Source of the DNA: Botryllus schlosseri
Lineage: Eukaryota
Assembly (NCBI GenBank): GCA_051294905.1
Contig: CM119372.1
Span: 2,110,001-2,174,000 of the forward strand
Direction of reading: 5' to 3'
DNA length: 64,000 nt
The translations under genes and the position numbers were made by a program. This document shows positions 1 to 64,000 of this stretch, one piece after another. The notes below the pieces were generated by a model. That model did not search any database, was not told the origin of the DNA, and saw only the letters and a program-made list of their open reading frames with translations. Each line of letters starts with the position of its first letter. Positions within the stretch are counted from its first letter, which is position 1.

Positions 1-293
1 TCGACAGATTGCTATTTGCAGGTGGAGGGGCGGATAGTGTAATAGTCACGAGCCAGCTAGCTATACACGGTATTCAGAGTGCAGACTGCGCCCAAGTGTA
101 ATGAAACTCGCACAGATGGTATGCATTCGCACGGATGGTCTACACGTCTTCATTAAGGGGTTGTTAATACGTACAATATGAGTGTATACCCCTGTATTAC
201 TACCGTATTACTACTGTATTATTCATTTTTAGACTTATTTGACCAGCGATGTGCATATGCGTGTATAGTCATTTGTGATTTGTGATTACTGTA

Positions 294-29000: not shown

Positions 29001-32000
29001 AGGCTAATGTGAAATAGATACATCGATATTGTATTAATTGCTTAGAAAATGAAGAGCTTCTAGGAGGTATAGAACTTTGATATACAATTTAATAATAACT
29101 GATATTGAAATAATCACAAAAATTTTCGGCTGACACTCGTCAGGGGTAATTGTCAGCGATTAGCAGAGAATTGGAAAGAACATTGTATATCAACAATCGT
29201 ATCACCCAGTACGAAGTCACCGAAATGAAATTTTGAATAAGAGAGGTCAAGTGATCGCTTTAGCTCAATGCACTACATCTTAATTCAGAATTGAGAGGAA
29301 TATTATATCCCAATAATCGTATCACAGGTGATGTCATTGTCATATCTAGTGATACCGTTGTTGATATACAGTGCAATGTTCCGCTGAATTCTTGACTAGT
29401 TGCTGATGATTACGCTTCACAAGCGTCAGCTCAATATTTGGGTTTATTTCAATGTGACTATATTACTCTTGCTGTTTGTCAATTGACCCCTTGAAAACTT
29501 GCCCGGGGTGTGGTGGATTTCAATCTAGACATATGTATTGTTTAACCAACCTATTCAAATGTAACTCTGAGTCATATCTCCATCCAGGGATCGCTGACGG
29601 ATTACCTGCGAGCCAACACGGTCACCATGGACGAATGTCTTCGAATGGTACAGACCATGGCGTGCGGAATGTCCTTCCTTCACGAAGATATTCAAAAGCC
29701 AGGCACGGAAGCCAAGCCCGCAATAGCGCACAGAGACTTTAAAAGCAAAAATGTACTCCTCGATCACAATCTGAACGCGGTTATCGCCGATTTCGGTTTA
29801 GCTGTGAAATTCTTGCCGGGAGAGAGTCCAGGCGAGAGCCATGGCCAGGTGCGTGTTACTTTTACAATCTGATTGAGGCTTGGATCTCTTAGAATCGGGT
29901 CGGTTTTTCTGAGTATATGTAGGCGTTGCCTGTTGTTATGGTTTGGTGTGTGTGGTGTTATCGGGATTCGGGAGGCTAGCTTTGGGAATGTTTTGGAGGA
30001 GTGTTTTGGAATCAAACTCAGACGTTGAAATGTACCGAATAAGGCGTTCAAACTTGGACTACTTGATAGTTCTAGTTGAACTAAGCTAATTAAAGCGGTA
30101 ATCCCGGTAATTCTAATCTAATTTCTGGTTTTCCTGAAAATACTATAGGATAATCGTACTGTGCGAATCGTTCCAAGCTGGGTTTAGGCTACAACCATTC
30201 GCCATTATCATGCTTATGAGAACGGACTCCTGATTTGATATGGATTGATCTCGATTTTTGGTGTGTTTCTTTCTAGTTTGGAGTTTGATTGAATTTCCAC
30301 GTTTTTGTGAATTCAGTAATTCTGATTCTAATCCAATTTGGATAAAAAAAAACTTTGTAGCGGTAGATATAAATCAAATATTAGTCTAATTTATGAATTA
30401 CTGTTGTGTGCTAATTTTAAATGTAATCTAATTTCTGGCTTTCCTGATCATGCAACAGGATAAATTTATCGTGCGACTTGCTGTACGTACATACGTTTGC
30501 CATTCTAATGCTCATGATAATGAACAATGATTTGATATGAATTGAAACTGATTGTTTGTGTTTCTTTGTAATTCGGTACTTGATTCAATTTCCAATTTTT
30601 TTAAATTCAGTAATTCTGATCTAATTTAGAGAAAATTGTGTGGCTGTAATTCAAATTCTAGTCTGATTGAAAATTTATGAATTATTTCCATGCTCTAACT
30701 TTAATTCGAATCGTAAAAAATACTATAAGGAAATGTATAGTACGAAACGAAGCAGGTTTGGTGTTCAAATATTTGCCATTTTCTTGCATATGAGACGAGA
30801 ATGAACTCTGTGACTTGATATGAACTGAACGTTTTTTTTTGTCCATCTGTTTGATTCTGAACCTGATTCAAGTTCCAAGTTTTTGAGTGTTCAGTAATTC
30901 TGATTGTAATCTGATTTGGAAAACTGTGTAGCTATGTATGTATGCGTGTGTCTGCAGGTGGGCACGCTGCGTTATATGGCTCCCGAAGTGTTGGAAGGCG
31001 CGATCAACTTTCAAAAAGACGCATTTCTACGCATCGACATGTACGCTTTTGGCCTTGTTATGTGGGAAGTCATGACGAGATGCACGGCATATGCAGGTAC
31101 AGTTGCATACTTCCGTCAGGGTTGAAATGACTAGGGCTGGGCTGACGGAATTCATCTGGAATTGAGTATAAAGCTTTGAGTATCACTAATTATTCCGTCA
31201 CGGCAGTATGAAAGATGTACGTAGTTCAAATATGTACTTTTTATGCGACCACAAAGAATATCACGCCACTTCCACATCGCAATTTTGTGATTTTTCGACC
31301 ATACCGATTTCATTGTACTTTATGGCAATGCTGTGGGTCTATCACAATTTCACAGATAAGTTATATTCTGGGACATGTCTAGATTTGTGCTCCTAATCAA
31401 TATTATTAAAATAAGATTGACTCTAACCTTGTGACTTGGTTACCGGTACTAGGGTAGGGTGGGCTGAAGAAACGAAAAATTTGAATTTCAAAAAGTGCCT
31501 TCGATATTTGGTCCCAAATTCGAATGAATTACTTCTATCATCATTTCAGGTTCCTGCACCCTCTAGTGGCCGTGCAATTTCACCGAGGGAGCCGACAATA
31601 GCTAATTTTGCCATGTCTTGATACTCGCTTATGCTAGAAAGCTAGTTTTGGGGTTAAAAGCTGCGGAAGCAACATGTTTCTATCTCACTGTCTTGAAAAT
31701 GTACAAAAAAGAAGTTGCAAGCAAATTGTTAAATTTTAGACTGCCATGAAAATGTCGGCTGGTTTTACGAAGTTTGCAATGCCAATTTGCATGTTACGAT
31801 TTGTTGTACTGCTGCTTTAACAACAAAGTCTTGTTTGGCGGACCTACGAGTTGATTAATAAATCAACCTAGCATAATTTTGATGGGAAAGAGAGAATGAT
31901 TGAACTTTCATCATATTACATCACGACAAAGCCTTATGATATGAACTTGGTGAAAAGGGTATCTTCTGTTCAACTCTACAACATACGACAGGCCTAGCCT

Positions 32001-35000
32001 GAATTGTTAAAAAATTGAATCAGTTACAGGTAATCAGCGATATAATTTCTATATACCTCATACCTGTATGCCGTCAGACCAACGCGTAACAGTCAAACAT
32101 TTTCGCAGAGTGTGGTGAATTCAAAATGCCTTTCGAAGCAGAATTGGGGCCTAACCCGTCCATGGACTTCATGCAGGAACACGTGGTGGAAAAGAAACTG
32201 CGTCCCGCTATCAGAGATGGGTGGAAGTCAAATAGGGTGAGTCGAAACTGTCTTCTTCGCTTGGAATACTGCAATTTGTCTTGGCACAGTAGGCCTACAT
32301 GGAAATGAAAGTTTGGAATAGCTGTATGCAGGATTCTGCGGTTGGTTGTGGTATGTTAGCAGAGTGATTGGTACTACGAAAGAAGAAATAACATATTTCT
32401 AGTCTAACAGAATGGTTCTCGACCTTTTTGACCTCGCGGACCTGTGAAACTTGAACAAAAAAAGGATTGTTGGCGTCCAACGTCTTTTGTTTTGGAATTG
32501 AGATAGAAAAAAATTCTAATATATTTGTCGGCGGACAACTTGCAACAGCGGTTGAGAACCACTGGTGTAACGCAAGTAGCATTGCATGACGCTAGCAGCT
32601 TGTAGATTTTCTTAACTGATATTAGCAAGTTTGTAACAATTTGATCTCAGATATTGCGCGTGTCACCGTTCTATGACTTCCTTGACATCCGTTTGTCAAG
32701 TCAACTTGAACGAATTCACGGCCCGAGAGCTCTCTTCCTATCTTTTGTCATGAGTTGTTCTGTATGATGGTGTTAGGAACCTTTGGGTGAGCGTATAATG
32801 CGTAATGATTTGGGAAAAAATAACTTGTGGCATTATCTACTTCTCTCTCGGGTGGAACGCATGTTTATAACCTTTTTTGACAAAAATTATTAAAAGATTT
32901 TCATCCTGGAGGTACAGAACTTCAATATACAATTGAATACTATATCCATATTGAAATGATCTCAAATATTTTTGGCTCAACTTGTCGGGGGTAATCGTCA
33001 GCAACTAATTTTAAAGGACATTGCATATCAACACTCGTATCATCGAATGTGAAGTCACTGCCATAGAAAAAAACTGTCTGCCTGGAATATTTCAATTTTT
33101 GATTCATATTGAAATGAACCCGAATATTTTCAGCTGACACTCGTCACTAACTGGTAGAGAATTGGAAATCACATTCAATATTGAATTCTCTACTAGTTGC
33201 TGACGATTACCGCTGACATGTGCCAAAATATTTGTGTTATGTCAAAACACATTTATTATTCAATTGTATATTGAAGTTATTTACCTCCATGAAGCTCGCA
33301 CGCCATAATTTCTCGAGTAATCCCCCCTTTCTTTCACATTCCAAGACTTAAACGGTTAGTAGCACATTAAACAATTGTAAAACCAGGATCGGTTCTCTGC
33401 ACACAAATTTAATTTGGTTTCGAACACACCAGGATGACGTGAATCTTTGCGAGACTATGGAGGAATGCTGGGATCACGACGCGGAAGCCAGGCTCTCGGC
33501 AGGATGCGTGGAGCAGAGAATCATCGGCCTGCGGAGGAACAGAAGAGACCAAGTCATGTCGCCTCCTCTCATTGTGGACATGCAGTCTCCGACGAGCTAC
33601 GCGGATACGTCTGCTATGGTAAGTCTTTAGTAGTTAGGAGCGTAAAAGTTCAGTACTCGAACACATCGGCTCTCCCTACTCAATTAGATAGTGCTGAAAT
33701 TATACATTTCTTCTCAAAATTTATCAATGAGAATTATAGTTTTGATATCATTTTCCACTGCTGTAAACCTCAATTGGTTGTATACGAAACATGTAGCACG
33801 AAACTATGCACGTTACCGGAAATGACATACCCGTGAAGTCATGATCAATCCACGTCATTGTCACAAGGTGTAATGTAAGAGGTATGGTCGGAAAATATCA
33901 AATAATCTTTAATGAGATGTCATTGTATTTTTTGTGGTCGCATAAAAGGAAACTATTTGAACTTTCGACCTCGTGCAAACTGTCGCGACATTTATTGAGT
34001 GATATTTGAAGCCTAGTACTCAATTCTGCCCAGTCTTATTTGATTTGCCATTTTCTTTGGTGCATGACGGATTTTTGTTATTTTCAGAACCAGATTAACA
34101 TGCAGATGAGCGTTTTGAGGAGGGACGACGAATTCGATGATAAGCATAGGTATGAATGGATTTTTTTCCACAAGATTTTACAAGTGGTGATATTTAGCCA
34201 CATGTTCATGAATGTAATCAAAAGTCGGTCCGGTAGATGTAGTTGACCTTTGCAAATTGGATCTTCTTACCGGTGGTTGGCGAACCCCTAGTTACATGAA
34301 ACGATAATCTACAGCTTTAATCATCTAATACATTACTGTAGGATACTTGTGCACAGATCGAACCGTGCACCAACCACAGTGCTCAAAGTACAACACCATT
34401 AAAACGTGATTTTTATATGAATAGAAAAGATTATTTAATGAAAATTTAATGCAAATCAGTGTGACTTCTGCAGTATGGGTTGGTTGTATGTCTTGGTATC
34501 CAGCAAACCCTTGAGGTTTGTGTGAACCCCTGTTCTAGGCATTGTGGTGTCGGCTGTGTTGGCTACATCTGCATATACTCGCGATATGTCTAAATTACTA
34601 GAAAAGTTCACCGCCTTTTTTGCTGCATTTAGGTTATACCAGTGCGGTGTGTTCTGAGCGGTGTTTCTTCATTCTGCGGTACCTTGTACCCCTGCATTAA
34701 CAAATACAGATATTGCGTCATAAATTTATATGCATTTGGTTGGGATCAAGCAATTCAGCTCAGCATAATAATAAAATACTAAAGAAACTACAAATTTGGC
34801 CGGCTACTTATTTAGTTCTTGGGTACATTATCTGTTAATATTTAGAAAAGGCAGTCGTGTGTTTTGGCCGGTTACACGACTCTTTGAAAAAGAATTTGGA
34901 GGTACAGAACTCAGAATACTGTCGAATATTCATATTGAGATACACCGGAATATTTTTAGTACAGAATGCGAAAGAGTATTCCGGTTTAGTCTGATATGAA

Positions 35001-38789: not shown

Positions 38790-39310
38790 AAAAGATTCGG
38801 AAACTGGAAGTTCTCAAGTTTATGTGTCAGTTCCGCCGCAGTCTTTGCCCCGCATATTTCAATGACTTCTTTACCTCGTAATCAAAAGTGCGTAAGTACA
38901 GCACGCGCGTCCTGGTCCAACTATCATATGGTTGACCTAAACGATCATCGCTCTGTCAAATATGCCGAACCTGTAGTGTGGAACAGAACAGTATCCCGTC
39001 AGCTGTCAGGCAGTCAACGAGCGTGACAGCATTCAAATCGAAATACAAGCCGGCTCTATTGAATAAATACTTGTCGGAGCTTGAGATTGCTGGACCACAA
39101 TCTGATATATCGACCTCGCATTACGTCAGACGACACCTCATTGGTCTTTCTTTGTTATCTTCTACTACTTTCCATTCGGTGTGCATGACTCCTCTTTACT
39201 TGGCCCGGGTGGGTATCTGATTTCAACGACTACTCCAAGTCATTTCTCCGCCTTTCTATCTTTTCATTGTATCGCAATCATGTGGTGGATTGATTGGATA
39301 AAAGTTTAAC
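38790..39310 (+). mobile_element. Degenerate 3' fragment of the same LINE family
   Basis: RKLEVLKFMCQF..YFNDFFTS and SIPSAVRQSTSVTAFKSKYK match the ORF2 C-terminus, followed by a similar 3'UTR. Confidence 0.85.
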
Positions 39311-42550: not shown

Positions 42551-44030
42551 ATGCACACTGCACCGTGTAAGAAAAGCGCAACTCCACCGGGACGGTGGGA
42601 AGTATGAATTCTAAGCTTAAATTATCTTTCATTACGCAAATCCACGAATGATCTGACGCCATTGTTTACGAAGATGCTGCTAAATCTCCATAAAATCATT
42701 TACTTATATATAGTGGATGGATGATCAAAAAATCCGATGCTTGCATGCTGTCTGCCAGAAACTTGTTTCGCATAGTTTAAGTAATTTACCCATTCCCTGT
42801 TCTGTAAGGTTTACCGGAAGATCAAATGCCTATTGACACTACACTGATTTCAGGCTATATGTCCATGGTCCAATAAGTAGGTGCATATATAGCAGGGGTG
42901 AGTAACTTCTCCAGTCGTCGGGGCTGATATGGGAAAATGAAGTATACATTAATCGCGTATATGCACCTGTGTAAGGTTTGTATCAAGGGGCGGGCAATAT
43001 GCGGCCCGCGGACCGGATCCGGCCTGCGACGGGATTTTGAGCGGCCAGCAGAGCTTTTCGACCCTGAAAGTGAATTTCTAATCTGAAAGTATCGAAAATT
43101 ATCACGCGTCACAGGATGGATACAAGTTTGCCAACCTGATAAAGACGTCAATGAAACTACCTGTTCTGTTCGGGTATACATACTAGCAAGCAAACATTAT
43201 CGACCATTAACATAAACAAGACAAGGCTCCGTTCCAAACTAACTGATATTCACGTGCAGTCTTTACTAAGGATTTCTACATCCAACATGCCGCCACAGTT
43301 CAAAAAACTTGTTGACAGCTTCGATTGACCGTAGGTGGTGGCGAACGTTATAATAACGACAGCACCTTTGGGTATGATAGCGACAAATATGGTACCAACA
43401 CTGACAAACGGAGTTTTTAATGAACTTATAGCGCCCAGCCTGGTCATTTCACTCTAACAGTACATCTTGAAGTCATTATGGAATAGCCGTTGGGTATGTC
43501 ACAGGAGAAAATGGATTTTACAAACATTTTGAAATCGCCGTGATTAACCTTACTTCTCCACCTTTTTCTTATTTATTTTCCACAATCCCTAACAAAACTT
43601 CTCGAAATTGCATAATGTTTGTAGCAGTAGGCTATTAGTAATTTTGCAGTTAAGATGAGTTTGCCCATAGTGTGATGTTTCCTTTCAGACGGCCATTCTG
43701 TTGATCTGCGTACTGGAGTTTTACCAGTTATGAAGCTAAACCGTCCTGTGATGTCCCTAATAAGACTATAAAAATTAGGTTATCAAACATATTGCAAATT
43801 TAGAGGTTCCACGGACACCCTGCAAATGCTTCGCGGACCCCCGGTTGATAACCACTGATTTAAATTGTTACTCCTGGATTTTCGGAACGAAATGGACAGC
43901 AGCCTTAGCCTGAGCCCACTCACTACAAAGAGTGTGTATTCACATCCTAAGGGCGGTACACGAAAACATAACATAATCAGATTTATAATAATAATATAAT
44001 AATTTATAGAGCGCCGAATATAACAATATA

Positions 44031-47012
44031 TCATCATCATCATTGGTTTATTTGCAATTTTATCAGTTCAATACACCACAAAAATGCGATACAATGAAAA
44101 GACAGGAAGATGTCGAAGCGACAAGGAGTAGTCTATGGAATCTGACACCCACCTTGGCCTAGGCGATGTAAAGAGGAGGCATGCACACTGAATGAAAGTA
44201 AAGAAGATAGTATAGAAGAAGAATGCGACAAGAAATAGGGCGGCATGTCATGGGAAGCGAGATCGATAGGTCAGTCGTGGTCCGGTAATCTTGAGGATGG
44301 ACTGTATTTATTTAGTAGTAATTGCTTGTATTTCGACTTGAATGTGGACATGCTCGTCGACTGTCGGATGGCCGGCGGGATACTGTTCCACACATCAGGT
44401 CCGGCATATTTGATGGAGCGATGATCTTTTCGGTCGATCATATGATATTTGGACGACGTGGACGCGCGTGTGTTGTACTTGTGCGCTTTTGATTCAGAGG
44501 TAAAGAAGTCATTGAAATATTCGGGGCAACGACCGCAGTGAAACTGATACATAAACTTGGCGATTTCTAGTTTCCGCATATCTTCTATGTTTAAGACGCC
44601 GAATCTCTTCAGCAGCGACTTATTGGATGGGCAGCCAGGCCCCTTTGGGGCCCTAGCTATGATTCGGAGCACTTTATGCTGTAGTTTCTGCAATGGCTTG
44701 AGTGCAGTTTTACTGGCAGCCCCCCAACAGAGGATGCCATAATGTAACTTCGATTGGATTAAGGATTTAAAGAGTATCAGAAGAACCCATGCTGGCATGA
44801 AGCGCCCAAGGCTGTAGAACAGGCCGCACTTCGGTGATAATTTAGTTTCTAGGGACTGAATATGACTCTTCCAGGACATGTTCGAGTCCAGTAAAACTCC
44901 GAGATCTTTGGCATTATCTGTGTTGGAAACGGGCTGACCGGCGATATTAACGGTCAGGTTATTTTTTGAATTAACTGTCAGCAATTGCGATTTCGAGGCG
45001 TTTATGCAAAGGTTGTTCTGGGCCGTCCACTCATGGACTTTGGGCATTTGGTCACCAGTCAGGGCATCCAGCTCTGCCGTCGAAGATGCGGAAGAGAGGA
45101 GGTGAGTATCATCAGCGAACAGTGTGGTGTTCAATGAGGAGGTTTCAAAAATGTCGTTGACATATAAGGTGAAAAGGACCGGTCCAAGTACTGAGCCCTG
45201 GGGCACACCACAGGTCACCGGGTGAGGAGAGGACAAGGTGTCTGAGATCGCAACCATTTGTTGGCGTCCAGTGAGGTAACTTTTCATGAGCTCAAGTTGT
45301 GGGCCCCGAAGTCCGTAACGCGCCAATTTCGAGATGAGAATTTTATGATCTACGCAGTCAAACGCTTTTTTTAGGTCGAGAAAAATGCTACATCCCACAT
45401 TTCGCTTCTCTGAGACATCATAGTACTGTTCGGCCACTGTTAGGAGGGCATGAGCGGTTTGGTGTTTGTTTCGGAAGCCAAATTGTTGAGGGGAAATGAC
45501 AGACATTTTGGCGAGGAATGAGGACAGGCGGGAGAGGAGCAACTTTTCGAATACAATACCGATGCATGGGAGAACGGATATCGGACGGTAGATGGTGACA
45601 TTAGTTCTATCCCCAGCTTTGTGTACAGGGACTACTCTGGCTTTTTTTAGATAGCTTGGGTAGACTCCATTTTCTATCATGAAGTTGAAAAAATGGGCCA
45701 TATATTGACCGATATGCAGGCTTATCATTTTTAAAAACCATGATGGGATTTGGTCATAGCCGTCGGCCTTGTGCGATTTCAGTTTGTGGATGGCTACTTC
45801 TACTTCGTATTTGGTCGTAGGTTCAAGCACAATTGACTGGGATATCGATCTCACCTCTGACCTGGCCGACACAGGTTTTGTAATAGAAGAAGCAATATTT
45901 GGGCCTACGTTACAAAAATATTCATTGAAGTGATTCGCGATGGCCGCCGGGTCTGAAAGTTTGTTTCCGGTATCCGAATTCACAATTTCCGAAACAGACT
46001 TATGCCCTTTTTTTCGATGTAGGAGAGAGTTAAGTCCTGACCATGTTTTTCGAGTGTCCTTTATGTGTCTGTTGAAAAATCTCTCGTTGTACTTTGCTTT
46101 TGCCTTGGAAATGAGATGCACGGTGCGATTCCTGAAACGTCGAAATCTTTCTCGTTCATGTTCTGGGCAGTTCTTGGTGTCTATTCGGTTATGCCACCGG
46201 TTACGTTTACGGATAAGTTGAATCAGCTTTGTGGTCATCCACGGATTTCGCTTCAATTTTCTTTGACTTCTTGAAAGGCGCTGTAGAGGTGCAAATTGTT
46301 CCAGCAGTGATTTGATAGCAGACATAAACTCTACAAATTTTTCGTCAAAGTTGTTTACCGAGATGTGGGGGATGGCTGATGTCTTAAATTGATTGAATGC
46401 GGCATCATCGAGTGCTTCTTCGTCCACTAACTCTCGTCGTCTGCAGAGGTGATATGTTTCGGGGGGTGACCTTTGTTGTTCTTGTGATAGAAAACCAATA
46501 TGGTTGTGGTCACTGATTTTTGCCGAAATGACAAATTGAATGATTTCCATGTCGCGCGAGTTGGTATATATGTGGTCGATCAAAGTCCTTGACTTTTCGG
46601 TTATGCGTGTAGGCTCGGTGATCATTTGGTAAAGACCGGCGGATTTGGCGGCGTTGGAGTATGCGTTGCCTTTGTGTTTTAGAAGGTTTATGTTAATATC
46701 TCCCGCAATGAAACACATCTTTTTGTCGCTGTTGACTTTGTGCAGTGAGCGCTCCAACGCTTTTGCGAATTGGTTCATGTTTTTCGTGGGATGACGGTAT
46801 AATACGGCCACAAGAAAAGATTTGTGAATTCCAATTGGGTGATCAACTTCCAGCCATAGCTCTTCGCAATCTTTGACATTCAGATCGTAGTCCGTGCAAA
46901 TTTCGTAAGGAATTTTTTCTTCAATGTAAAGACCAACACCTCCGTAAGATTTCTTTGACTTCGGTGCCGGAGTATACTCGAAGTTGTAGCCCGATATATC
47001 AACGTGTATCAT
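44031..47012 (-). mobile_element. 5'-truncated LINE with 3'UTR and (ATG)n tail
   Basis: ORF2 is followed by an approximately 240-nt 3'UTR ending AATAAAccaATGATGATGATGA. The same tail recurs near 1420-1540 and 63135-63210. Confidence 0.9.
44271..47012 (-). CDS. Non-LTR retrotransposon ORF2 (partial APE endonuclease plus reverse transcriptase), CR1/L2-type
   Basis: 913-aa ORF with APE motifs (GGVGLYI, VLYRHP, AGDININL, TLIDHIY, SDH) and RT motifs (YRPISVL, QFGFR, FLDLKKAFD, GVPQGSVLGPVLF, FADD). The N-terminal part of APE is missing. Confidence 0.95.
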   Translation of the reverse strand: MIHVDISGYNFEYTPAPKSKKSYGGVGLYIEEKIPYEICTDYDLNVKDCEELWLEVDHPIGIHKSFLVAVLYRHPTKNMNQFAKALERSLHKVNSDKKMCFIAGDININLLKHKGNAYSNAAKSAGLYQMITEPTRITEKSRTLIDHIYTNSRDMEIIQFVISAKISDHNHIGFLSQEQQRSPPETYHLCRRRELVDEEALDDAAFNQFKTSAIPHISVNNFDEKFVEFMSAIKSLLEQFAPLQRLSRSQRKLKRNPWMTTKLIQLIRKRNRWHNRIDTKNCPEHERERFRRFRNRTVHLISKAKAKYNERFFNRHIKDTRKTWSGLNSLLHRKKGHKSVSEIVNSDTGNKLSDPAAIANHFNEYFCNVGPNIASSITKPVSARSEVRSISQSIVLEPTTKYEVEVAIHKLKSHKADGYDQIPSWFLKMISLHIGQYMAHFFNFMIENGVYPSYLKKARVVPVHKAGDRTNVTIYRPISVLPCIGIVFEKLLLSRLSSFLAKMSVISPQQFGFRNKHQTAHALLTVAEQYYDVSEKRNVGCSIFLDLKKAFDCVDHKILISKLARYGLRGPQLELMKSYLTGRQQMVAISDTLSSPHPVTCGVPQGSVLGPVLFTLYVNDIFETSSLNTTLFADDTHLLSSASSTAELDALTGDQMPKVHEWTAQNNLCINASKSQLLTVNSKNNLTVNIAGQPVSNTDNAKDLGVLLDSNMSWKSHIQSLETKLSPKCGLFYSLGRFMPAWVLLILFKSLIQSKLHYGILCWGAASKTALKPLQKLQHKVLRIIARAPKGPGCPSNKSLLKRFGVLNIEDMRKLEIAKFMYQFHCGRCPEYFNDFFTSESKAHKYNTRASTSSKYHMIDRKDHRSIKYAGPDVWNSIPPAIRQSTSMSTFKSKYKQLLLNKYSPSSRLPDHD

Positions 47013-47286
47013 TACTACACTAGGGCGCTGTACATAAAAGGCAATAAAATAGCATCGAGTTGCGTAAGTCTAGTAGTTGCTCTCTATCTATCATTCTTTC
47101 AAGCTATCCTTTGACTATGCAGTTTGCTTGAATACTTATTTCGTCGGCGTGCAGCTAAAATAAAAGCGCTTCCGTGCAATGAAGTCTTGATTAGGCTCGG
47201 AGCTCCGCGATGGACGTCCGCACTGCTCAACGACTAATCACGACTATCACGGTTATAAATCCTACGTGCCTATACGACGTGCATAC

Positions 47287-48271
47287 TAGGGATGGTGTGA
47301 ACCTCTGAAAGGTTCGGGTTCGTGTGAACGCGAACCTTTTTGAAAGGTTCTGTGTGAACACGAACGTGAACCTCGTGACGTCATATTGCTAATTCCAACC
47401 CTATCTTTCAATGAAGTGATAGCCTATATTAATGTACACGATACCTAGCGAAGAATCGGGCCACCTAATGTCGCATTACTGAAGTAGGCTACATATTGGC
47501 GTTTTAAACGTCGCTAAATGTATCAACCGCGGTTATCAAAGGATATAATAATCTCATAAAATCAATACATTCCGTCGCTTTGCCAACAATTTCGACGAGG
47601 ACTTACCATGAAATATAAGCTTACGCCTCAATGGTCTTAGCCAGGCCTGACAATGTGTTCGGAGTCTGAGTATTGCTACATTGATGTTGAGCAGAGTGTA
47701 AGACGGGTTTCTATACTCGCTACTGATACCATAAACAACAAGTTATATAGCAGTAGCCAGCACCTTAATCGAACGAATTTGGTTTTAATGATGCAGTAAA
47801 GATATGAAGTCAAGATTGACCCTGTACGCCCGCTCGATATTTTACATCAGAAAACGATTTCAATGTCATTGATTGGTTGAATAAGCATCATTCGCTGACT
47901 ACGTATATCGCTCGTGATGTTGTGTGATTGCGGGTCAAGCTCACAGCGTAGAGTCACTAAATATTCAAAACGGAAAGCTGAATATTTCGAGAAATTTTTG
48001 GTAACAAAAAACAAGTAAAACTTTTAAGGTTGTCATCGTGCATGCTCGTTTAGTGTTGATTTTTTATGCTGCAAGCGCCATGCATAGAGTGACCCGCAGT
48101 TGAAATGCAATAAACTTGAATCAAAGATCTTATAATGAAGTGCAAATTACAATTTACCAAAAAGGTTCACAGTGCAGAACCTACCAAGGTTCTGTTGTGA
48201 ACGCGAACCTCTAAATTTCCGAGGTTCACACACAGAACACGAACGTGAACCTCACGTTCACACCATCCCTA
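47287..48271. mobile_element. hAT-type MITE
   Basis: TIRs TAGGGATGGTGTGAAC / GTTCACACCATCCCTA with perfect 8-bp TSD gtgcatac. Confidence 0.9.
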
Positions 48272-48954
48272 GTGCATACCTAATTCTACGTCCCTATGTG
48301 CAAGCAACATTTGGATTAAAATGTTTTGTTTGATTTATACCGTGGTACAAGACTGAGGTATAGGTTCTGATTTCGTGCACCACGGGTGTATAAGTAAGGT
48401 ATATAGGCTACACAGTTCCCGCCAGCATCCTGTCATGGGCGGTACGGGTGTGAACACGCACTCTTCGCTAAGAGAGCGCAGTGTAAGAAAAACTCAATTC
48501 TAGCAGGACCTGGGGCGGTGGGCAGTGTGTATTTCAAGCTTGGATTGAATGAAAACTTTAAGCTTGAAGCATGGAGACCAAAAACAGTATTCAATGAATT
48601 TATTTTCTTAATATACATCAATAACTGTTCAAGTCAATGAGACATCTCCGGTCAATCAAAGTTGTCAACAAGTTCTTCGAACTCTCGCCGCATGTCGGAC
48701 GTAGAAACACTTAGGAAAGACCGCACGTGCACATCAGTTAGATTGGAAGTTGCATCTCTGTCTTGGTAATGTTGGTAATGTAGCAAGCAAGCAATGGGTG
48801 ATTGCTACAGACTGCGGCCGCGGGTCACATTATCACGGAAGACCGGAAACTATCTGCGGGCCGTTTGCTGCCTGATATATATATCCTCATGTTCACTTCT
48901 GAAGTCGGTGGCAGGTGGTTCATAATTCCTCTTTCGTCAAAGAACAGGACTTAC

Positions 48955-49233
48955 TTAGTTCTCTTGATCGTAGTAACCTTTTGATTCGACTTCATCCATA
49001 CCGTAGTATCCTCTGGATTCGTCCTCATCGGCATCGTAATAGCCGCGTTTCGCGTCACCAGGCCACGCAGGCCACACAGGTCGCGACCTATGCACGCGGC
49101 TCACAAAACGCACCGTAGGCCTACCTAGGCTAGCTCTCCTTCGGCTGATCGTAACGCGACGGCGGCTCCAGGCGTCAGTGTGTAGGACGAGACCGCCGAC
49201 AACGAGAAGTATCAGTGCGGTTCTCAGCTGCAT
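48955..49233 (-). CDS. Secreted peptide precursor (92 aa): signal peptide, Arg/Trp-rich cationic core, acidic GYY-repeat tail; ascidian antimicrobial-peptide-like
   Basis: MQLRTALILLVVGGLVLHTDA|WSRRRVTISRRRASLGRPTVRFVSRVHRSRPVWPAWP-G|DAKRGYYDADEDESRGYYGMDEVESKGYYDQEN*. A strong acceptor (tctcatctctttttacgcag) lies 7 nt before the ATG. A donor gtaagt follows the TAA directly, with a 56-nt intron to 48899, and AATAAA lies at 48599-48604. A paralog is at 62975-63124. Confidence 0.85.
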   Translation of the reverse strand: MQLRTALILLVVGGLVLHTDAWSRRRVTISRRRASLGRPTVRFVSRVHRSRPVWPAWPGDAKRGYYDADEDESRGYYGMDEVESKGYYDQEN

Positions 49234-50020
49234 GATGAATCTGCGTAAAAAGAGATGAGATGTCAACATAGCACCTTGAACAACGTGCGTAATTCGCTAT
49301 CCAATCACACCTTGTGGTCGTTACAGTGCTATATAGTAGCCTAGCTCTCGATCGATGCTGTGCCGAAATGACTCGCTCTTTATGTAGTCATCGAGACGGA
49401 ATGATTTTCATCGAAAATTATATATACACTTAACGACGGGTCCATCCGGACTTGCTGCAACGCATTGTTATCTTTTGATATATGATGCAATTATGTCAAC
49501 AGAAGAATTTTCGATGATTATCATAACATACGTTCATTTTCAATTTCGAATTTACCCATCCGAATGGACGTGCATCTGGGTGGTATGATAGAGTGCTGGC
49601 ATGACTCGAGTCAGACCCGAATCAACTTTTTTGTATAAATTTACCGCAAACGAAATAATCATAGCTTACAGCCAAACTTGGACAACTAGAAAATTTTCAG
49701 CTTTTCCAAATTTGATTAGAATTAGAATGAAAGCTACACATTTTTTTCAAATTAGATTAGAATTAGAATTGGAGCTGCATAGGTTTTTCCGAATTAGATT
49801 AGAATTAGAATTACTGAATTCGCAAAAACTTGGAAATTGAATGAAATCGTGAATGAGAAAGTAAGACAGCACGCAAAAATCAAGTCCGGTTCATATCAAA
49901 TCACATTGCATTCCGATAAGCATGAGAATGGTTAACTTCTGTACACCAAACTAGGCTCGTTTTGTACTATACCAGGGGTCACCAACACGCGACCCGTTTA
50001 TGATCATGATATTTCTTGTT

Positions 50021-50309
50021 TTTTTTATTTGTTTGTTTGTTTGAGGTAGGCTATTCATGGTGTTTGTCGACTACTATGGTCATTTACGCCAGACCAATTT
50101 CTTCATTTTTATTCCGTAACTGCCGACTTGTAGCACGGCCCACTTCTAGGCTTTTATAAGACACCGCTTACACGGATAATATGGCGAGGAGGAGCCTAGA
50201 TACACCTCCAACACTTGGGTAGGAATTCTGAAGTCGACCTCGGTCATAGACTCGAACCCGCAACCTATTGATGTTGCAGCTGTGGATTATTCCACTCCGC
50301 TATCTCGCC
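50021..50309 (-). mobile_element. tRNA-derived SINE
   Basis: The minus strand starts GGCGAGATAGCGGAGTGG (A-box-like), contains GGTTCGAGTC (B-box-like) and ends in a (CAAA)n/A-rich tail. Confidence 0.7.
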
Positions 50310-50680
50310 ACGTATTTCTTGTTGTATTTGTACTTTTTAAATAAAATATATGACCGGATATATGGCTGGCGGCACTTTAATATTACTTCTCTTGTGGTAA
50401 CCATACCGATCGCCCACGCCCATGCCAGTGAGCACGGCGTTGTACGTAAAGTTTTATAACCGTGGTTGCTCAACTGTGTGGTCTATTTTGTCTCGATATT
50501 CTTCCGGCCCGCGGCCGCTATGAAATTTGAAAAGTTCCCTGCGAAGCGTTTCGACTTTCGAGTTGGCGACTTCTGCATTATACAGTTCTTCTGCGTGGCT
50601 GAAAGCCTTGTAATGAGGAAAACGATTTTCTCTTTTCCAGTAACTCAAATCATCACAGTCCAATGAGTCTATGCTCTCAC

Positions 50681-50946
50681 CATAGTGTCCTATATGGTGA
50701 GGACACAGAGAGAGAATATAAATTTTATTCGTTTCAGGACCATGAATAGTATAAAATTATTATATTTTCGTAATCAGTAGGCTATAACAGCAGATTTTCA
50801 TTGATACCCGTTTTATTGAATTTGGCGCTGGGCAAGCCGGTCAAAATTGGCCGTAAAGTTGCCTTTGGTCAAATGGAAAGTATGACGTAACCCAAATGCA
50901 GCGAGCCGTTCACTCTCGCTGTGTCCACACCATATAGGACACTATG
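50681..50946. mobile_element. MITE with 19-bp TIR and 7-bp TSD (P-like, inferred)
   Basis: TIRs CATAGTGTCCTATATGGTG / CACCATATAGGACACTATG with TSD ctctcac. Confidence 0.85.
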
Positions 50947-51289
50947 CTCTCACGCTCTATGCTGCGAAATATCTTTCCACTGCATCGTCGAATATTTTTC
51001 CTTTGGTTGGATCTGAAGCAATCATTCCCTTTTTCTTGATGTAGTTGAGGGCATGAAAGTGAACAAGCCTGTGATAACTATCTTTTTTTGCTGCTGTTCT
51101 GTTCGTGATCGAAACTAAAAGATTGTTCGCACACTACAAGCGACTATGCTAGCATGGCTTCGTCACAATAACTATTACGACTGTGCGGTAATGCGATGGC
51201 GGTTGGCACTGTATTTCCCTGCGCTAGAGGAATATTATTGTTAACTCGCTGCAAAAAGCCACGGACAAAGATATATTTTCTGGAAAACA

Positions 51290-55683: not shown

Positions 55684-56259
55684 ATCACAGTATAGAGTAT
55701 GACTGGAGTGACGACTCGATTGTTCTCCCATTGTTAGCCGGCAGAATGGTCACGGTCAGATGGATGCACCCAAAACAGAATAGCTCAGTGCTTGTTTCAA
55801 TGGCGTTCAAGGCGATTCGTCGTGTATTTCTTGAAGTTGCTTCGGAATTAGTTAGACAGTTCAACATTTAGGTAGCGGTGGCGAGTCGTTATGACCAGTG
55901 AATAATACTGTGTAGCCTATGTTACATTTCTCACGAGATTGATGTGATATTGTGGCTTTGATCCTTTGTAGAGTTTGCTACATATATGAATATAATGACA
56001 AAAGGTATAGAATATCTGGTTCGTGTGCATTGGCTATTGTGAGATGAATTCATGGAAAGAAAGACTGAAGAATACTACAAAGTGAACAAGTGGAAAGATC
56101 TTGAACTATACCGATATGCAATTCACAATATCGTTGATTGAAAATATGTCCTATATTAACTGCAGAAACTCGAGTATAAATATAACAAACAATATTGCAA
56201 CTGTCTTGTAGTCTTATATAATGCCTGTCCGATAACCGCAGAAACTTGAGTATGACTAG

Positions 56260-57831: not shown

Positions 57832-58853
57832 TCAAGCCATCTCGCAAACTTTTGGAAAATTTGTGGAGGACTTTTTTTGCTTCTCATGCAATGCAAACTT
57901 TGCAAAATTGTGAGACAAGATGTTATTCAAGTGTCTCAATGCCTTGTCCATGACATCCTCAACCTCAATTAGGTCTGAGTCAGATTGAAGTGACACAGTA
58001 TGAATTAATTTGTTATAGAATGGATCACAGTGAATTGCGTCAAGTACCCTGAAAAACTTGATCTTTTTCAGGGGTTTTGCCATTTCTTTACTGAGGATAA
58101 CATAAAAGCGGAGAACCATGCCATGAAACTGTTCAGACAGGCTCTTCAATCCACCAACTTTCTTCTGCATCACTTTAATGAGGTTTCCCGATGGCGCTGC
58201 AGATGTTAGGCATGTGGCAATTGCTTCGTTAGCTTGCTTAGAAATGGCTCCCAAAAGCACTCCACCAATATATTCAAGTATATCTAAAAACATGTCAAAG
58301 TTTTTCCATGGAAAGGCAAAGTATCAAAGGCTATTTACTTACCAGATTCCTTGCTGTTGACTCCTCCAATCTTTGTGATTGGATCCTGTTCTTTACCGCA
58401 CACGAGAGAATCAAACATCTTCAAAAGTAATGCTGAAGCTGGCAGTTGCGGCAAACCCAGCAACTTGTTAGCTTGGTGACAGATATTAAAATAATGTTGA
58501 TGCAATCCGTCAACACCAAGTTTGCAATATTCAGAATGGAGTTGTTTCACCAATGGAACAGCTTTGGTCACGTCTAGTTCCTCGAATGATGGGGCGCATT
58601 CAAAGTATTTTTGCAATTTACACAAGCCCTCTTCAAAACAGCAATTACAGCATCCCTCAGATATATCCCGAGTACTGGTGGCAACTTCATGATTTTTGTA
58701 ATGTTTTTTCAGAGCTTTCACAGTCGGAAAGGATGCTTCGCATTCCTCACAAATCACACCTTTCCAGTTATCGAGTCCTTCGAAACATTCTTCAATTTCC
58801 ATTTCAGTTAGTCCCTCCCAGTCATCCCCAAGTGATGCAGCTGAATCAGTCAT
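57832..58853 (-). CDS. Transposon-borne two-exon protein (about 320 aa) with an N-terminal C2H2 zinc finger
   Basis: Exons 58853-58343 and 58283-57832 are joined by a 59-nt phase-1 gtaagt..tttttag intron. Zinc finger CEECEASFPTVKALKKHYKNH; later motif LEYIGGV...VGGLKSLS. Confidence 0.7.
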
Positions 58854-59145
58854 GATACCGATTTCTATCCGTGACGAAATATGATCTAAATCTGGCGAAA
58901 AATATAACAGAGGCTACACGGTATTATTCACTAGTCATAATGACTCGCCACCGCTACCTAAATGTTGAACTGTCTAACTAATTCCGACGCAACTTCAAGA
59001 AACACACGAAGAATCGCCTTGAACGCCATTGAAACAAGCACTGAGCTATTCTGTTTTGGGTGCATCCATCTGACCGTGACCATTCTGCCGGCTAACAATG
59101 GGAGAACAATCGAGTCGTCACTCCAGTCATACTCTATAATCACAG

Positions 59146-59722
59146 TATAGATAACTAACCTACGGATAGATATACAACACCCGTCGTCACGCTTGCTTGC
59201 CCGGAGGAAAATACTGCTCAACAATCTGAACGCAACGTAATTGCCCATCCCGTAGCTGACGACCCGAGCCCTCAAATTGAATAAAGTTGATCTTATCTGA
59301 AAGCTACTGTCGCACTGATTCCGAAAATATACATTAAAATCAGATCAGGACGATGGAACCGCCTCGAAATACACCGCAAAGTCTGAAAATCGGCATTGTT
59401 CTGAACAATCGCAACCACGCAAGGGGCATTGGTATGGCCATTGTGGTGTGTCGCTGCGATTGTTTAGAACAATGCCGATTTTCAGACTTTGAAGGCTATT
59501 TCGGGATGGTTCCATTGCCTTGATGAGACTGTAAAGTACATTTTCTGAATCAGTGCGACAGTAGCTTTCAAATAAGATTAAATTTATTTAATTTGAGCGT
59601 TTGGGTCGCAAGCTGTGGGATTGGCAATTACGTTGCGTTCAGATTGCTGAGCAGTATTTTCCTCCGGGCAAGCAAGCGTGACGACGGGTGTTGTATATCT
59701 ATCCGTAGGTTAGTTATCTATA
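59146..59722. mobile_element. Foldback MITE with 7-bp TSD (P-like, inferred)
   Basis: Almost wholly palindromic, with termini TATAGATAACTAACCTACGG and TSD atcacag (59139-59145 and 59723-59729). Confidence 0.85.
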
Positions 59723-62700
59723 ATCACAGAGAGCAGCTGGGTGGATTGGATAGTTGTCTGCAGAAGATTTCAATCAGTAAGAGAAATGAGAACATCAATC
59801 ATGTTGGACTGACCCTCGTCATGATAGAGAAAAGCGTCTCGTCGAAACATTTCTCGGAAGATAGTGCTATTGGTTCGGTACCAACAGAGCTACCAGTAAT
59901 GCATGAAGTCGTCTAGGACTGAGGCCTTCGGGGCCACCATGATAGGAAATATGCGAGCATAGAGGGCAAGAAAATCAAGCAAACGTGGAGTAAAGCCAAT
60001 AATTGATACGAAAATTTTTAATTCCATGATGACATAGGCCAATTCTGACAAAAGAGCGTAAAATATTGATCAATTGATTGTTTGAATGCTGGTCATGGTC
60101 AAGGCCCAAGGGGGATGGATGGGTGGAGCAATTGCAGACGTGGACAATTTCAGTTGTTTTGCACATTCCCTTCATCTATTTGTTAACGATGTGCTGAAGG
60201 CTCCAGGTGCACTGCCAGAAGAATATCAATAATAATATCAATATTTGGTGAAACCATTGAAGAAAAGATCCCCTGCAAGGGAGCGGTGGAACCCAAATGA
60301 AGAAAGATTTCCAATTCTTGCTGTGCCACTAACTATGGTACCAAGTGAAAGACTGCTCACTATGTTTAGTACTTTATACATTATTTATGGAAGACCACAG
60401 AAGTTCATTCCTTGGAGAAAGAGCCGAGAAATTGTGCTTCGTGAACTGTAATCTGCAACTGCTGGATTGGTGCTTTTGATATATTTTTATAGCCCCTAGA
60501 TCATTTATTTCATGTTCAAGCATATCAATGGCTGTAAAGTTGTTGAAATAAATGCTCTGAGTTGTTAAAATTGGGCCTTGAGCTAGATTCCATATCTTTT
60601 GAATATCGGCTGAATATATCGGGGTTATCGGTGGAGGTACTGGATATCGGTCTTATCGGTATCGGCTCAGAAATCCAATATCGGTCGGGCTCTAGTTATG
60701 AGCGCTACCGGGGCAAGCCCCGGCTAGGCATTCACAAAGCGAAAACACAGAAGAGAATTCGATTTTCGCAGAGACTTCGCTATGTATGGGCGTTTGCAAG
60801 CGAAAGCACAAGAAGAACGCGGGTTTCGCTGTGATCTCGGTATATATTGATTGCTGTGCGTCTATAAATGGTTAAATTGTTATTGAACAGAATTTTAGGT
60901 GGGGCAATGCCCCAGTTGCCCTATAGGACGAGCCGCCACTGATCTCACGGGTGTGTAGATGGGTAGTGTATTCACTCTTTGCATCTTCAATTTGTTCCAA
61001 CTTATCGAGGTTTCTTATTCGAGCCTCTACTTTGATTGAATTACAGACCGGGTCTATGTAGGCTAGCTACTCGCGCATTTTATTAGCAGTTCAAGGTAAG
61101 TGTGAGCGATACAACTCCTTTTTTTATGTATATTTAACTTTATATTCGGTATTTGATTGAGAATAAATGGCGAATCACTTTGTCTTTCAAACAGCTAGCA
61201 AAATATACTGACTTTGAATCACCTCGATACTTCGAAAATTCAATGAGACTTGAATTGTGACTTTGACTCGAGTCATCTCCACAAATCGAGTGACTTGACT
61301 TTACTCGAGTCAAAATGAGAAATGAATCGAAGGTATGATGGGATGTTGGCTGTCGAAAGTCATACAGAATATACAGAAAGATTCAAAACGAAGCGGTTCG
61401 TGATTGATATTTTAGTGGGAGCTGCTGCAGAAGCACGCGTGAAGCATGTTATTAGGCTACTATATCTTGCTTGTTATGATTCCCTTGATTACTAGCTTAT
61501 CTTTCCGTTGCCTTCAGTTCGGTGTCAGTGCATCTTGTAGAAACTAAATCTAAATTATGATATAGGTCTTCGAGCCATGTTGCCATCCTCTTAAAAATTC
61601 CCTCAATATATATACATAAATTACATATAGGGGTGGATTCATACCCACCATACCCCCACAATACTTTGCAAAGTCTCGTGCGGATTGGTGTCTATAGCTG
61701 TTCATGTTTAGGCCCTTCATTCTTTGCCACTGGGTTGGAACCTTTTCACATCCACGATCCACGTTTGCATCGACTGTATAAATTTCCCGTATTTACTTCT
61801 CTTTGTAACTTGTAAAGTCCTCTTTTTTCGGATCTTAAAATCTGGTAACCATATTCAAATGGTATGCCTGTCGAGCGGCAAGATCGAGCAATTTCCAGCT
61901 GACTAGCAGTGAAAACAATTTATCCTCAGGTTCCTATATTGGCATGTAGACACAATGACTCGGACATGCAATACTGCTCGAGATATCTTGTATTTTGACA
62001 CTTTTATTTTTGTAAGTGCTTCTCACTTTGCCGTTGACTTTGGTCTTAAGACTCTGAAAATGAGAAAATAGGAGTGGTCAGTAAATCCCGTGTTGATACT
62101 ACTCAATGTACTATTCACCCGACCCAAGGAAATATTTAAATCATGCGACCCATAAGAGGAGGGCATATTATAGGCCTATGACTGAAATTTAAACTGTTAA
62201 AAGTAACGGATTTTCGGAACGAAATGGATAACAGCTTTAGCTAAACCCACACTCTTACGAATAGAGTATGCATTCACACCCAAAGGGTGGTACTCGAAAA
62301 CGGAACCTAATCAGAATTATATCACGGTTACGGCCCCTACGTGCCCACTGCCCATACGTGCATACCTTCCTACGTCCCCATGTGCAAGCATCATCTGGAT
62401 TAAAATGATGTGTCTGATTTATAGCGTGGTGTAGGTCTGAGGTACGATTTGGTTTCGTATATGCATGTTCACAGTTCACACCCGTATATCGCTAAGAGTG
62501 CACGGTGTAAGACAAAACTCAATTCTACTGGGACGATGAGAAGTGTGGATTTCAAGCTTAATTTAAATGAAAACTTTAAGTTGAAAATAGCATAGAGACC
62601 AAAACAGTATTCAATGAATTTATTGACGTAATTTGCTTCAATAGCTGTTCAAGTCAACGAGACGTCTCTGGTCAATCAAAGTTGTCAACAAGCTCTTGAA

Positions 62701-62974
62701 ACTCTGGCTGCAAGTCGGACGTGGAAACCCTTAGTAAAGACTGCACGTGGACATCAGTTAGATTGGAACGCATAGCTTTAGCAGTGGGGATTGCGACAGA
62801 CTGCGGAGTGCGGACGCAGGTCTCATTACCATGCAATACCGGAAACTATCTGCGGGCCGCTCAAAATCCGTATGTTTCCCGCCACCAAAATATATCCTCA
62901 TGCTCACCACTGCAATCGGAGGCATCAGTGGTTTCATAATTCCTATATTGCCAAGGAACAAGACTTACCTAGTT

Positions 62975-63124
62975 CTATTGATCGTAGTAACCTTTTGATT
63001 CGACTTCATCCATACCGTAGTATCCTCTGGATTCGTCCTCGTCGGCTTCGTCGTAATAGCCGAGTTCCTCGTCACCGGGCCACGCACGCCTGCGACTCAA
63101 ACTCACTCTACGTCTGCGCCGTCT
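62975..63124 (-). pseudogene. Second copy of the Arg-rich/GYY peptide gene; 5' part replaced or displaced by a LINE insertion
   Basis: Reads RRRRRRVSLSRRRAWPGDEELGYYDEADEDESRGYYGMDEVESKGYYDQ*. It has the same post-stop intron (62968-62910), 3'UTR and AATAAA (62619-62624) as the first copy. No signal peptide is visible, and a LINE 3' tail begins immediately upstream at about 63135. Confidence 0.75.
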
Positions 63125-63134
63125 ATATAGTTCG

Positions 63135-64000
63135 GTTCGATTTATTAGCAATTTTTAACAGTTCAATACACCGCGAAAAATTGCCATACAATGAAAAAAA
63201 GGTGTCGACTAGTATTCATGTAGTAGAAATGGCTTGTATTTCGATTTGATTGTGGACACTCGGCATGCTCGTCGACTGTCGGATATCCGGCGGGATACTG
63301 CTCCACACGTCAGGTCCGGCGCATTTGATTAAGCGAGGATGTTTTTGATCGATAATATGAAAATGGGCGACATTGACGCGCGTGTGTCGTAGCGTACTTG
63401 TGCGCTATTGATTCCAAGGTAAAGAACTCATGGAAATATTCGGGGCAATCACCGCAGTGGAACTGATACATAAATTTGGCGATTTCTAGTTTCCGCATAT
63501 ATATTTTATGTTTAAGACAACGAATCTCTTCGGCAGTGGCTTGTTGGATGAACAACCAGGCCCCTTTGGGACCCTGTCTATGATACGGAGTACCTTGTGT
63601 TGTAGTTTTCGCAGTGGATCGAGTGAAGTTTTACTAGCAGCCCCTAACAAGGTATGCCATATTGTAACTTCGCTTGGACTAAGGATGTAAAGAGTATTAG
63701 AAGAACCCAGCCTGGCATGAAGCGTCTAAGGCCGTACAACAGGACACACTTCGGTGATAATTCAGCGTGCAGGGACTGAATATGACTCCTCCAAGACATG
63801 TCCGGGTCCAGTAAACCCCGAGGTATTTGGCATTTTTCGACTTGGAAATGGACTGACGGTTATTTGTTTTTATTTTACTTTCAACAATTGGGATTTCGAG
63901 GCGTTTATGCAAAGGTTATTTTGCGCCGTCCACTCATGCACTTTGGGCATTTGATCACCAGTGAGGGCATCCAACCGTGCCGTCGAGGATGCGGAAGAGA
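63135..64000 (-). mobile_element. Degenerate copy of the same LINE family (3' part, runs off the window)
   Basis: Colinear with about 44045-45095, with frameshifts and stops (fragments MRKLEIAKFMYQFHCG.. and NAKYLGV). Confidence 0.9.

Follow-up and report, generated by a model that had tools for sequence, protein, structure and literature searches.

A transcribed, multi-copy gene for a small, probable Arg-rich precursor protein with a Gly-Tyr-Tyr repeat tail in Botryllus schlosseri

In this study we show that the window, a stretch of 64,000 nucleotides from Botryllus schlosseri (contig CM119372.1 of GCA_051294905.1), carries at 49233-48955 on the minus strand a real, transcribed gene for a small, putative Arg-rich precursor protein. 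This gene belongs to a multi-copy family, of which it is a minor member, and paralogues elsewhere dominate the RNA. It is apparently undescribed. By analogy with published ascidian precursors we read its product, with slightly more confidence than doubt, as a host-defence peptide precursor that would be cut before an Asp residue and amidated. At the least, the gene, which is expressed and unannotated, adds a candidate antimicrobial peptide to those known, from a family in which the core varies from copy to copy.

The open reading frame runs from an ATG at 49233 to a TAA at 48955 and specifies 92 residues without Cys. The layout given in a preliminary description of this DNA agrees with our counts: a signal of 21 residues, a core of 37 residues with 11 Arg, three Trp and no Asp or Glu, and then Gly-Asp and a tail with 11 Asp/Glu, whose length of 33 residues includes the Asp of Gly-Asp. 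The signal has a best 11-residue hydropathy mean of 3.21 and small residues (Thr and Ala) at positions -3 and -1, and AlphaFold models its residues 1-20 from the single sequence as a helix with pLDDT 80-88. Modelled likewise without an alignment, the whole precursor reaches a mean pLDDT of 60 and a pTM of 0.24, with pLDDT 45-57 over the core. The core contains two Ser-Arg-Arg-Arg clusters and a Trp/Pro end, with four Pro, one Phe, one His and no Lys. The processing signals claimed earlier are also in place (Table 1): a pyrimidine-rich acceptor ends at 49241, GTAAGT stands at 48954 and AATAAA at 48604, and the latter is retained in a second family copy at 62624. Intron 1 contains an in-frame upstream ATG at 49269, and pyrimidine content suggests an acceptor candidate for intron 2 at ~48710. 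With a strict pattern, no kappa-B-like site was found in the 2.2 kb upstream of the gene.

Table 1. Features of the precursor gene and of the second family copy, in window coordinates
Feature	Position	Strand	Remarks
Likely 5'-UTR exon, 3' end	49311..49335	-	GT donor next at 49310
Intron 1	49241..49310	-	70 nt, GT..AG, from sequence
Exon 2, entire coding sequence	48955..49240	-	Two X1 contigs match 48955-49192 at 100% identity
Predicted signal peptide, residues 1-21	49171..49233	-	From hydropathy; putative cleavage site
Arg-rich core, residues 22-58	49060..49170	-	4.5 kDa, +11
Gly-Asp junction	49054..49059	-	Kept in second copy; likely cut before Asp with Gly as amide donor, by analogy
Acidic tail, residues 60-92	48958..49056	-	Three units, 11-residue period
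Splice donor GTAAGT	48949..48954	-	Directly after stop codon
AATAAA, likely polyadenylation signal of 3'-UTR exon	48599..48604	-	Only such hexamer in 48301-48954
Second family copy	62975..63124	-	tblastn E 2e-30
Retroelement fragment, where the second copy's signal exon would be	63206..64000	-	82% identity with 44300-45097 in the reverse-transcriptase ORF

The tail had been described as balancing the charge of the core, and this holds in part: with two Lys and two Arg besides its acidic residues it has a net charge of -7 against +11 for the core, which leaves the propeptide at +4. To regard it as a mere charge balancer is an overstatement. The tail is built of three conserved Tyr-Tyr units of the pattern (K/R)-Gly-Tyr-Tyr-(D/G), which the preliminary description did not contain; GYY lies at residues 64-66, 75-77 and 86-88, each time preceded by Lys or Arg, and the six Tyr make up 18% of the tail (6/33). 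Each of these Tyr has three to four acidic neighbours. As a speculation, sulfation of all six would bring the tail to about -13, balancing the core.

For a chance control the window was compared with 100 order-2 Markov windows, using a filter for signal-like ATG frames of 60-200 residues that was written after the precursor gene had been seen and shows only that the pattern is rare. Two frames of the real window had a signal-like ORF, one of them basic-then-acidic (the precursor gene), and two frames had at least three GYY (the precursor gene and the second copy). The Markov windows together yielded 41 signal-like frames, none of which was basic-then-acidic and none of which had three GYY.

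Transcription was followed in four public runs aligned to 47900-51280, namely X21 (stranded single-cell RNA, ~3% read), X23 (bulk RNA, ~6% read), X1 (RNA by guess) and X15 (DNA-like). The run index recorded none of the runs found to contain this stretch as RNA. Over 49030-49142 the X21 depth was 146.5 on one strand versus 0.57 on the other, as expected for minus-strand RNA. At the copy-specific core sites 49070, 49076 and 49081 there were 159, 151 and 132 X21 reads, none with another letter, and two of these three sites were covered by 33 and 28 X23 reads, of which three reads had another letter. X1 depth was 10.5, 11 and 4.7 in three exon-2 bins and fell to 0 in both flanking bins, and an X1 contig matches 49069-48955 without difference and leaves exactly at the donor, its 54 further letters mapping elsewhere. 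The RNA-seq check suggested earlier thus speaks for transcription, with reads on one strand over the copy-specific core and a contig that ends at the post-stop donor; among the joints listed there was no junction-spanning read of the precursor gene. At 49235 a 286-read RNA loose-end consensus (agreement 0.71, mostly paralogues) fits the spliced 5' form ungapped, with 20 matches in 30 letters as counted by eye. A short 5'-UTR exon resembling 49311-49335 is present in family transcripts, and no other leader is visible in the consensus shown. In 48691-48803 the X21 depth was 16.5 versus 0.95 by strand, a depth to which a dispersed repeat may contribute. The core end differs at three positions in a contig of X1 and in one of X15, with a change of residue at two of them (codons 53 and 55); these contigs represent an allele or a close paralogue.

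The second copy (Table 1) consists of a short Arg-rich head, Trp-Pro-Gly-Asp, three GYY units and a stop two codons earlier, and no signal-peptide exon for it was found within the 64-kb window; this part is either absent or situated on the far side of the retroelement fragment. Its region at 62339-63124 shows ~850 nt of 3' homology, 72% alike. This type of copy is transcribed as well: a 318-read X23 loose end equals window 63052-63081. In X23, transcripts of the second-copy type are commoner than those of the precursor gene. The X23 depth over the tail, ~1430, is roughly fifty times that over the copy-specific core, the excess coming from other family members. Paralogue loose ends, translated by eye, contain further Gly-Tyr-Tyr units (730 and 537 reads), and a paralogue core ending in four Arg followed by Tyr-Asp-Gln was read by eye at 49008 (955 X23 and 461 X21 reads); a loose end of 981 reads shows this core end too. 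An apparent third copy at 43209-43337 proved to be just a dispersed repeat common to the 3' region.

Between the two window copies, 72 of the last 75 coding nucleotides are identical (96%) and 140 of 161 positions in the nearby 3' DNA are alike, the tail being better conserved (Fisher p 0.037). This comparison suggests that the tail is either constrained or recently homogenised. The head is alike at 19/33 bases (58%), yet 9/11 residues are kept, seven of these nine with different codons, in a register chosen on the protein, which favours the result. The basic head hence looks constrained as protein, because its residues are kept in spite of the differing bases.

Several other elements share the window. 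An open 932-codon frame with endonuclease and reverse-transcriptase domains at 44271-47069 (minus strand) is a young non-LTR retroelement, and decayed relatives of it lie at 38795-39076 and 63206-64000. A multi-exon activin type II receptor-like gene occupies ~19900-33600 on the plus strand, with a kinase exon at 29546-29872 and introns in which a foldback repeat occurs many times, and marks the DNA as that of a spliced animal genome. Two open frames at 57832-58913 (minus strand), of which one shows a C2H2 finger too weak for the Pfam cut-off (E 3.5e-05), are enclosed by a 261-nt, 94% inverted repeat with arms at 55691-55951 and 58878-59138, and a 276-nt foldback adjoins at 59146-59722; the flanked frames are possibly a DNA transposon. 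Exon-like frames at ~270-13500 (plus strand) belong to a membrane protein that includes a Cys-rich stretch; it looked XK-related by eye, but a Pfam search with two pieces of the frames gave no match.

How might such a protein work? The 92-residue product is predicted to be secreted and would likely be stored in blood-cell granules as an inactive precursor. Its signal would be removed after residue 21, and the propeptide would then be stored, with the acidic tail of Tyr-Tyr repeats likely masking its core. Cleavage in front of Asp60, together with amidation at Gly59, would release a 37-residue Arg-rich amidated core that would likely bind and kill microbes; Trp, Arg and Tyr may be modified. Nineteen of the twenty 18-residue windows of the core lie within the limits for hydrophobicity, moment and charge given in the accessible text of PMC7387483. 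Counted against this role are the amphipathicity of the core, which does not exceed that of its shuffled versions (891 of 2000 reach its best 18-residue moment), its low pLDDT in the model and the lack of a kappa-B-like site by the strict pattern. A variable core beside a conserved propiece is the usual pattern of host-defence precursors, and we counted it in favour of this reading for that reason. It also counts against this reading that convertases could cut up the core, which has four Arg-Arg pairs and a single R-x-x-R site, and that the better conservation of the tail than of the 3' DNA may mean that the tail itself is the product.

It might be possible, although we regard it as unlikely, that catechol tripeptides, namely tunichrome Mm-1 or a relative, are cut in several copies from the tail, which would be compatible with a host-defence role of the core. 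Cleavage behind Lys/Arg and in front of Asp would release Gly-Tyr-Tyr from units 1 and 3, and hydroxylation, desaturation and oxidative decarboxylation of the tripeptide would lead to Mm-1 or a relative, a product that could serve as phenoloxidase substrate for killing and wound sealing. Mm-1, Gly-dehydrodopa-dehydrodopamine, is a modified Gly-Tyr-Tyr (PMC3039461, table 1), and Botryllus morula-cell granules contain polyphenols, phenoloxidase and furin according to excerpts of PMC9966394. Lys or Arg stands before all three GYY units and Asp after two of them, and paralogue reads show further such units, by eye. However, the middle unit runs into Gly-Met-Asp, and in the second copy a basic residue precedes two of the three units, the first being preceded by Leu. 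The conservation of the tail can also come from recent gene conversion, with head DNA 58% versus tail DNA 96% alike. Moreover, in the accessible part of PMC3039461, Mm-1 is reported from Molgula and not from botryllids; the tyrosine compounds listed for the latter are botryllamides. How tunichromes arise was called unexplored in excerpts of a 2010 review, and those of a 2017 review call them likely protein fragments; in the literature searched, mostly papers available without subscription, we found no description of a tunichrome precursor gene.

A further, more doubtful idea is that one precursor gives rise to an Arg-rich amidated antibiotic together with several tunichrome-type catechol tripeptides by a single rule: cleavage would take place before Asp, a freed Gly would become the amide and a freed Tyr the dehydrodopamine. 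If this were true, the gene from which tunichromes derive, long sought, would be identified in the dual-product precursor, and tunichromes would be host-encoded, ribosomally made natural products. The larger stake rests with the tail, and the GYY family gives exact peptide masses to seek.

Two other readings of the tail are weaker than the tunichrome one, the better of them being that the protein is a DOPA- or sulfotyrosine-bearing glue or granule-packing peptide, which we hold to be improbable. Its basic head and acidic tail would condense it, and oxidised Tyr would cross-link it into tunic, cuticle or extracellular traps. A block-charged, Cys-free chain that is modelled as mostly unstructured would suit such a role, as would the great abundance of the family in RNA (with 6% of X23 read, the tail reaches a depth of ~1430). 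In Halocynthia, the holdfast peptides (1.5-2 kDa) are rich in DOPA, Glu/Gln, Ser and Gly, but they contain ~50 mol% catechol (excerpts of PMC13079984), compared with 18% Tyr in the present tail, and the Gly-Asp junction, being conserved, points to cleavage at a definite site.

We think it quite improbable that the gene is a decaying or silent duplicate with reads supplied by other family members. Such a view could appeal to the ~98 of 100 aligned X23 reads whose continuation is unlike the window, to the roughly fifty-fold excess of depth over the tail and to the retroelement 1.9 kb away; against this, the frame is open, the splice signals are intact, and 132-159 X21 reads at three copy-specific sites are without difference, with 28-33 X23 reads at two. 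The X1 contigs are 100% identical to the gene as well, although an identical copy elsewhere could give the same reads.

Least probable is a neuropeptide or hormone precursor whose basic sites would release cionin-like (CCK/gastrin) peptides with sulfated Tyr-Tyr, as the CCK end carries Trp and Phe, which no tail unit has, and as a bulk product accords better with the expression level and the variation between copies. Each unit does stand behind Lys-Arg or a single basic site, unit 2 reads Tyr-Tyr-Gly-Met-Asp, and cionin has two adjacent sulfated Tyr, but these lie 6 and 7 residues from its C-terminal amide (PMC8428848, in part), and no tail unit has a Gly amide donor at that distance.

The claim that the precursor belongs to an undescribed family stands only in part. 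In its favour there is no match in protein collections. A protein search gave seven candidates, none at E up to 1, and a search of longer proteins gave one candidate, none being scored; the exact precursor sequence is absent from the protein collection, and Pfam and PDB sequences returned 0 families and 0 entries. The best score in the ESM Atlas was 0.81, with no usable match once the signal was removed, and of 350 pattern matches in metagenome contigs none was confirmed. Three matches among 1.84 billion representatives were, on inspection, unrelated tandem-repeat translations. Such blank searches are weak evidence of novelty, because the collections are poor in spliced animal genes. No Arg-rich precursor with a Gly-Tyr-Tyr repeat was described in the literature searched, mostly papers available without subscription (the original styelin and clavanin cDNA papers thus fell outside), and text passages of the botryllid single-cell papers PMC13635237 and PMC12212465 mention no such gene. 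Against the claim, Arg-rich, weakly amphipathic ascidian peptides with acidic tails have already been published and assayed, namely KH.C7.94 and KH.C1.640 of Ciona.

The ascidian layout claimed earlier, a signal, a cationic peptide and an anionic extension with Gly-Asp between the latter two, is present, and the junction fits the published rule: styelins and clavanins are cut N-terminal to Asp, and the same has been proposed for Ciona precursors (excerpts of PMC7387483, which describe layout and Asp-side cut for most Ciona candidates, styelins and clavanins). The wide class defined in the accessible text of that paper comprises proteins of 50-100 residues with a signal, no Cys and a cationic segment within limits, all of which the precursor has at 92 residues; of the filters, size, signal, Cys, hydrophobicity, moment and charge were applied. 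The acidic residue that this class has at the boundary of core and proregion is found as Gly-Asp in both window copies.

According to the same excerpts (PMC7387483, Ohtsuka and Inagaki 2020), Ciona KH.C7.94 has repeated Ser/Ala-Arg-Arg-Arg clusters, a charge of +11 and Gly-Asp after the core, with an MIC of 6.25 uM and low salt resistance, and KH.C1.640 has a core that ends in four Arg and then Tyr-Asp-Gln, is LPS-induced and shows an MIC <3.125 uM. The Arg-rich Ciona segments KH.C1.365, KH.L63.9 and KH.S1007.2 had no or weak activity (PMC7387483, in part). Our precursor shares with KH.C7.94 and KH.C1.640 a signal, an Arg-rich Cys-free core with Ser-Arg-Arg-Arg clusters, low amphipathicity and an acidic C-terminal region; with KH.C7.94 it also shares the +11 charge and Gly-Asp at the core end, and the Tyr-Asp-Gln core end of KH.C1.640 is matched, by eye, by paralogues of the precursor gene. 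This likeness is one of low complexity, judged by eye and not by alignment, and the protein-collection searches returned neither Ciona peptide. Unlike both, the present core is longer, with four Pro and a Trp-Pro end, and the Gly-Tyr-Tyr repeat tail is absent from the anionic segments listed for Ciona in the accessible text of PMC7387483.

The precursor had further been held distinct from the Lys/His helix families, and by sequence features it is indeed neither a styelin nor a clavanin, nor botryllin. Like styelins and botryllin it has a signal, a cationic peptide, an anionic C-terminal extension and a predicted cut near Gly/Asp, and like botryllin a predicted mature peptide of 37 residues with a charge of about +11 (excerpts of PMC9966394). 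Further marks of the styelin and botryllin family are production in morula cells, modified Trp, Arg and Tyr, and amidation. Botryllin was in fact our first suspicion; its precursor is described in those excerpts as having 158 residues, a 23-residue signal and a KHK motif. It was rejected on the length of the precursor, the missing KHK motif and three published epitopes that are absent here; three botryllin primers match the window at no better than 13/18, 14/20 and 14/19. The combination of a KHK motif and >30% mature identity to styelins that marks styelins and botryllin is not found in our core, which is without Lys. Styelins are Phe-rich and cecropin-like in excerpts of PMC10608444 and PMC9966394, whereas the present core has one Phe and no Lys. 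In place of a Phe-rich amphipathic helix of 31-37 residues of the styelin type we found one Phe, four Pro, a moment within that of shuffles and a low-confidence model. Clavanins and clavaspirin are His-rich helices of 23 residues, amidated and cut before Asp from a secreted precursor (PMC10608444 and PMC2866484, in part); our peptide is likewise predicted to be amidated and cut before Asp, but its core has 37 residues and one His.

With regard to the tail, Mm-1 of the Mm-1/plicatamide group has Gly-Tyr-Tyr as its backbone before modification (excerpts of PMC3039461 and PMC10531651), and the Tyr before Asp would become the C-terminal residue, which tunichromes carry as dehydrodopamine. Unlike Mm-1, a compound which like Mm-2 comes from Molgula manhattensis, the tail is known here as sequence. 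In conclusion, this precursor has an ordinary ascidian layout and an Arg-rich core of a kind already known; what sets it apart is the GYY tail.
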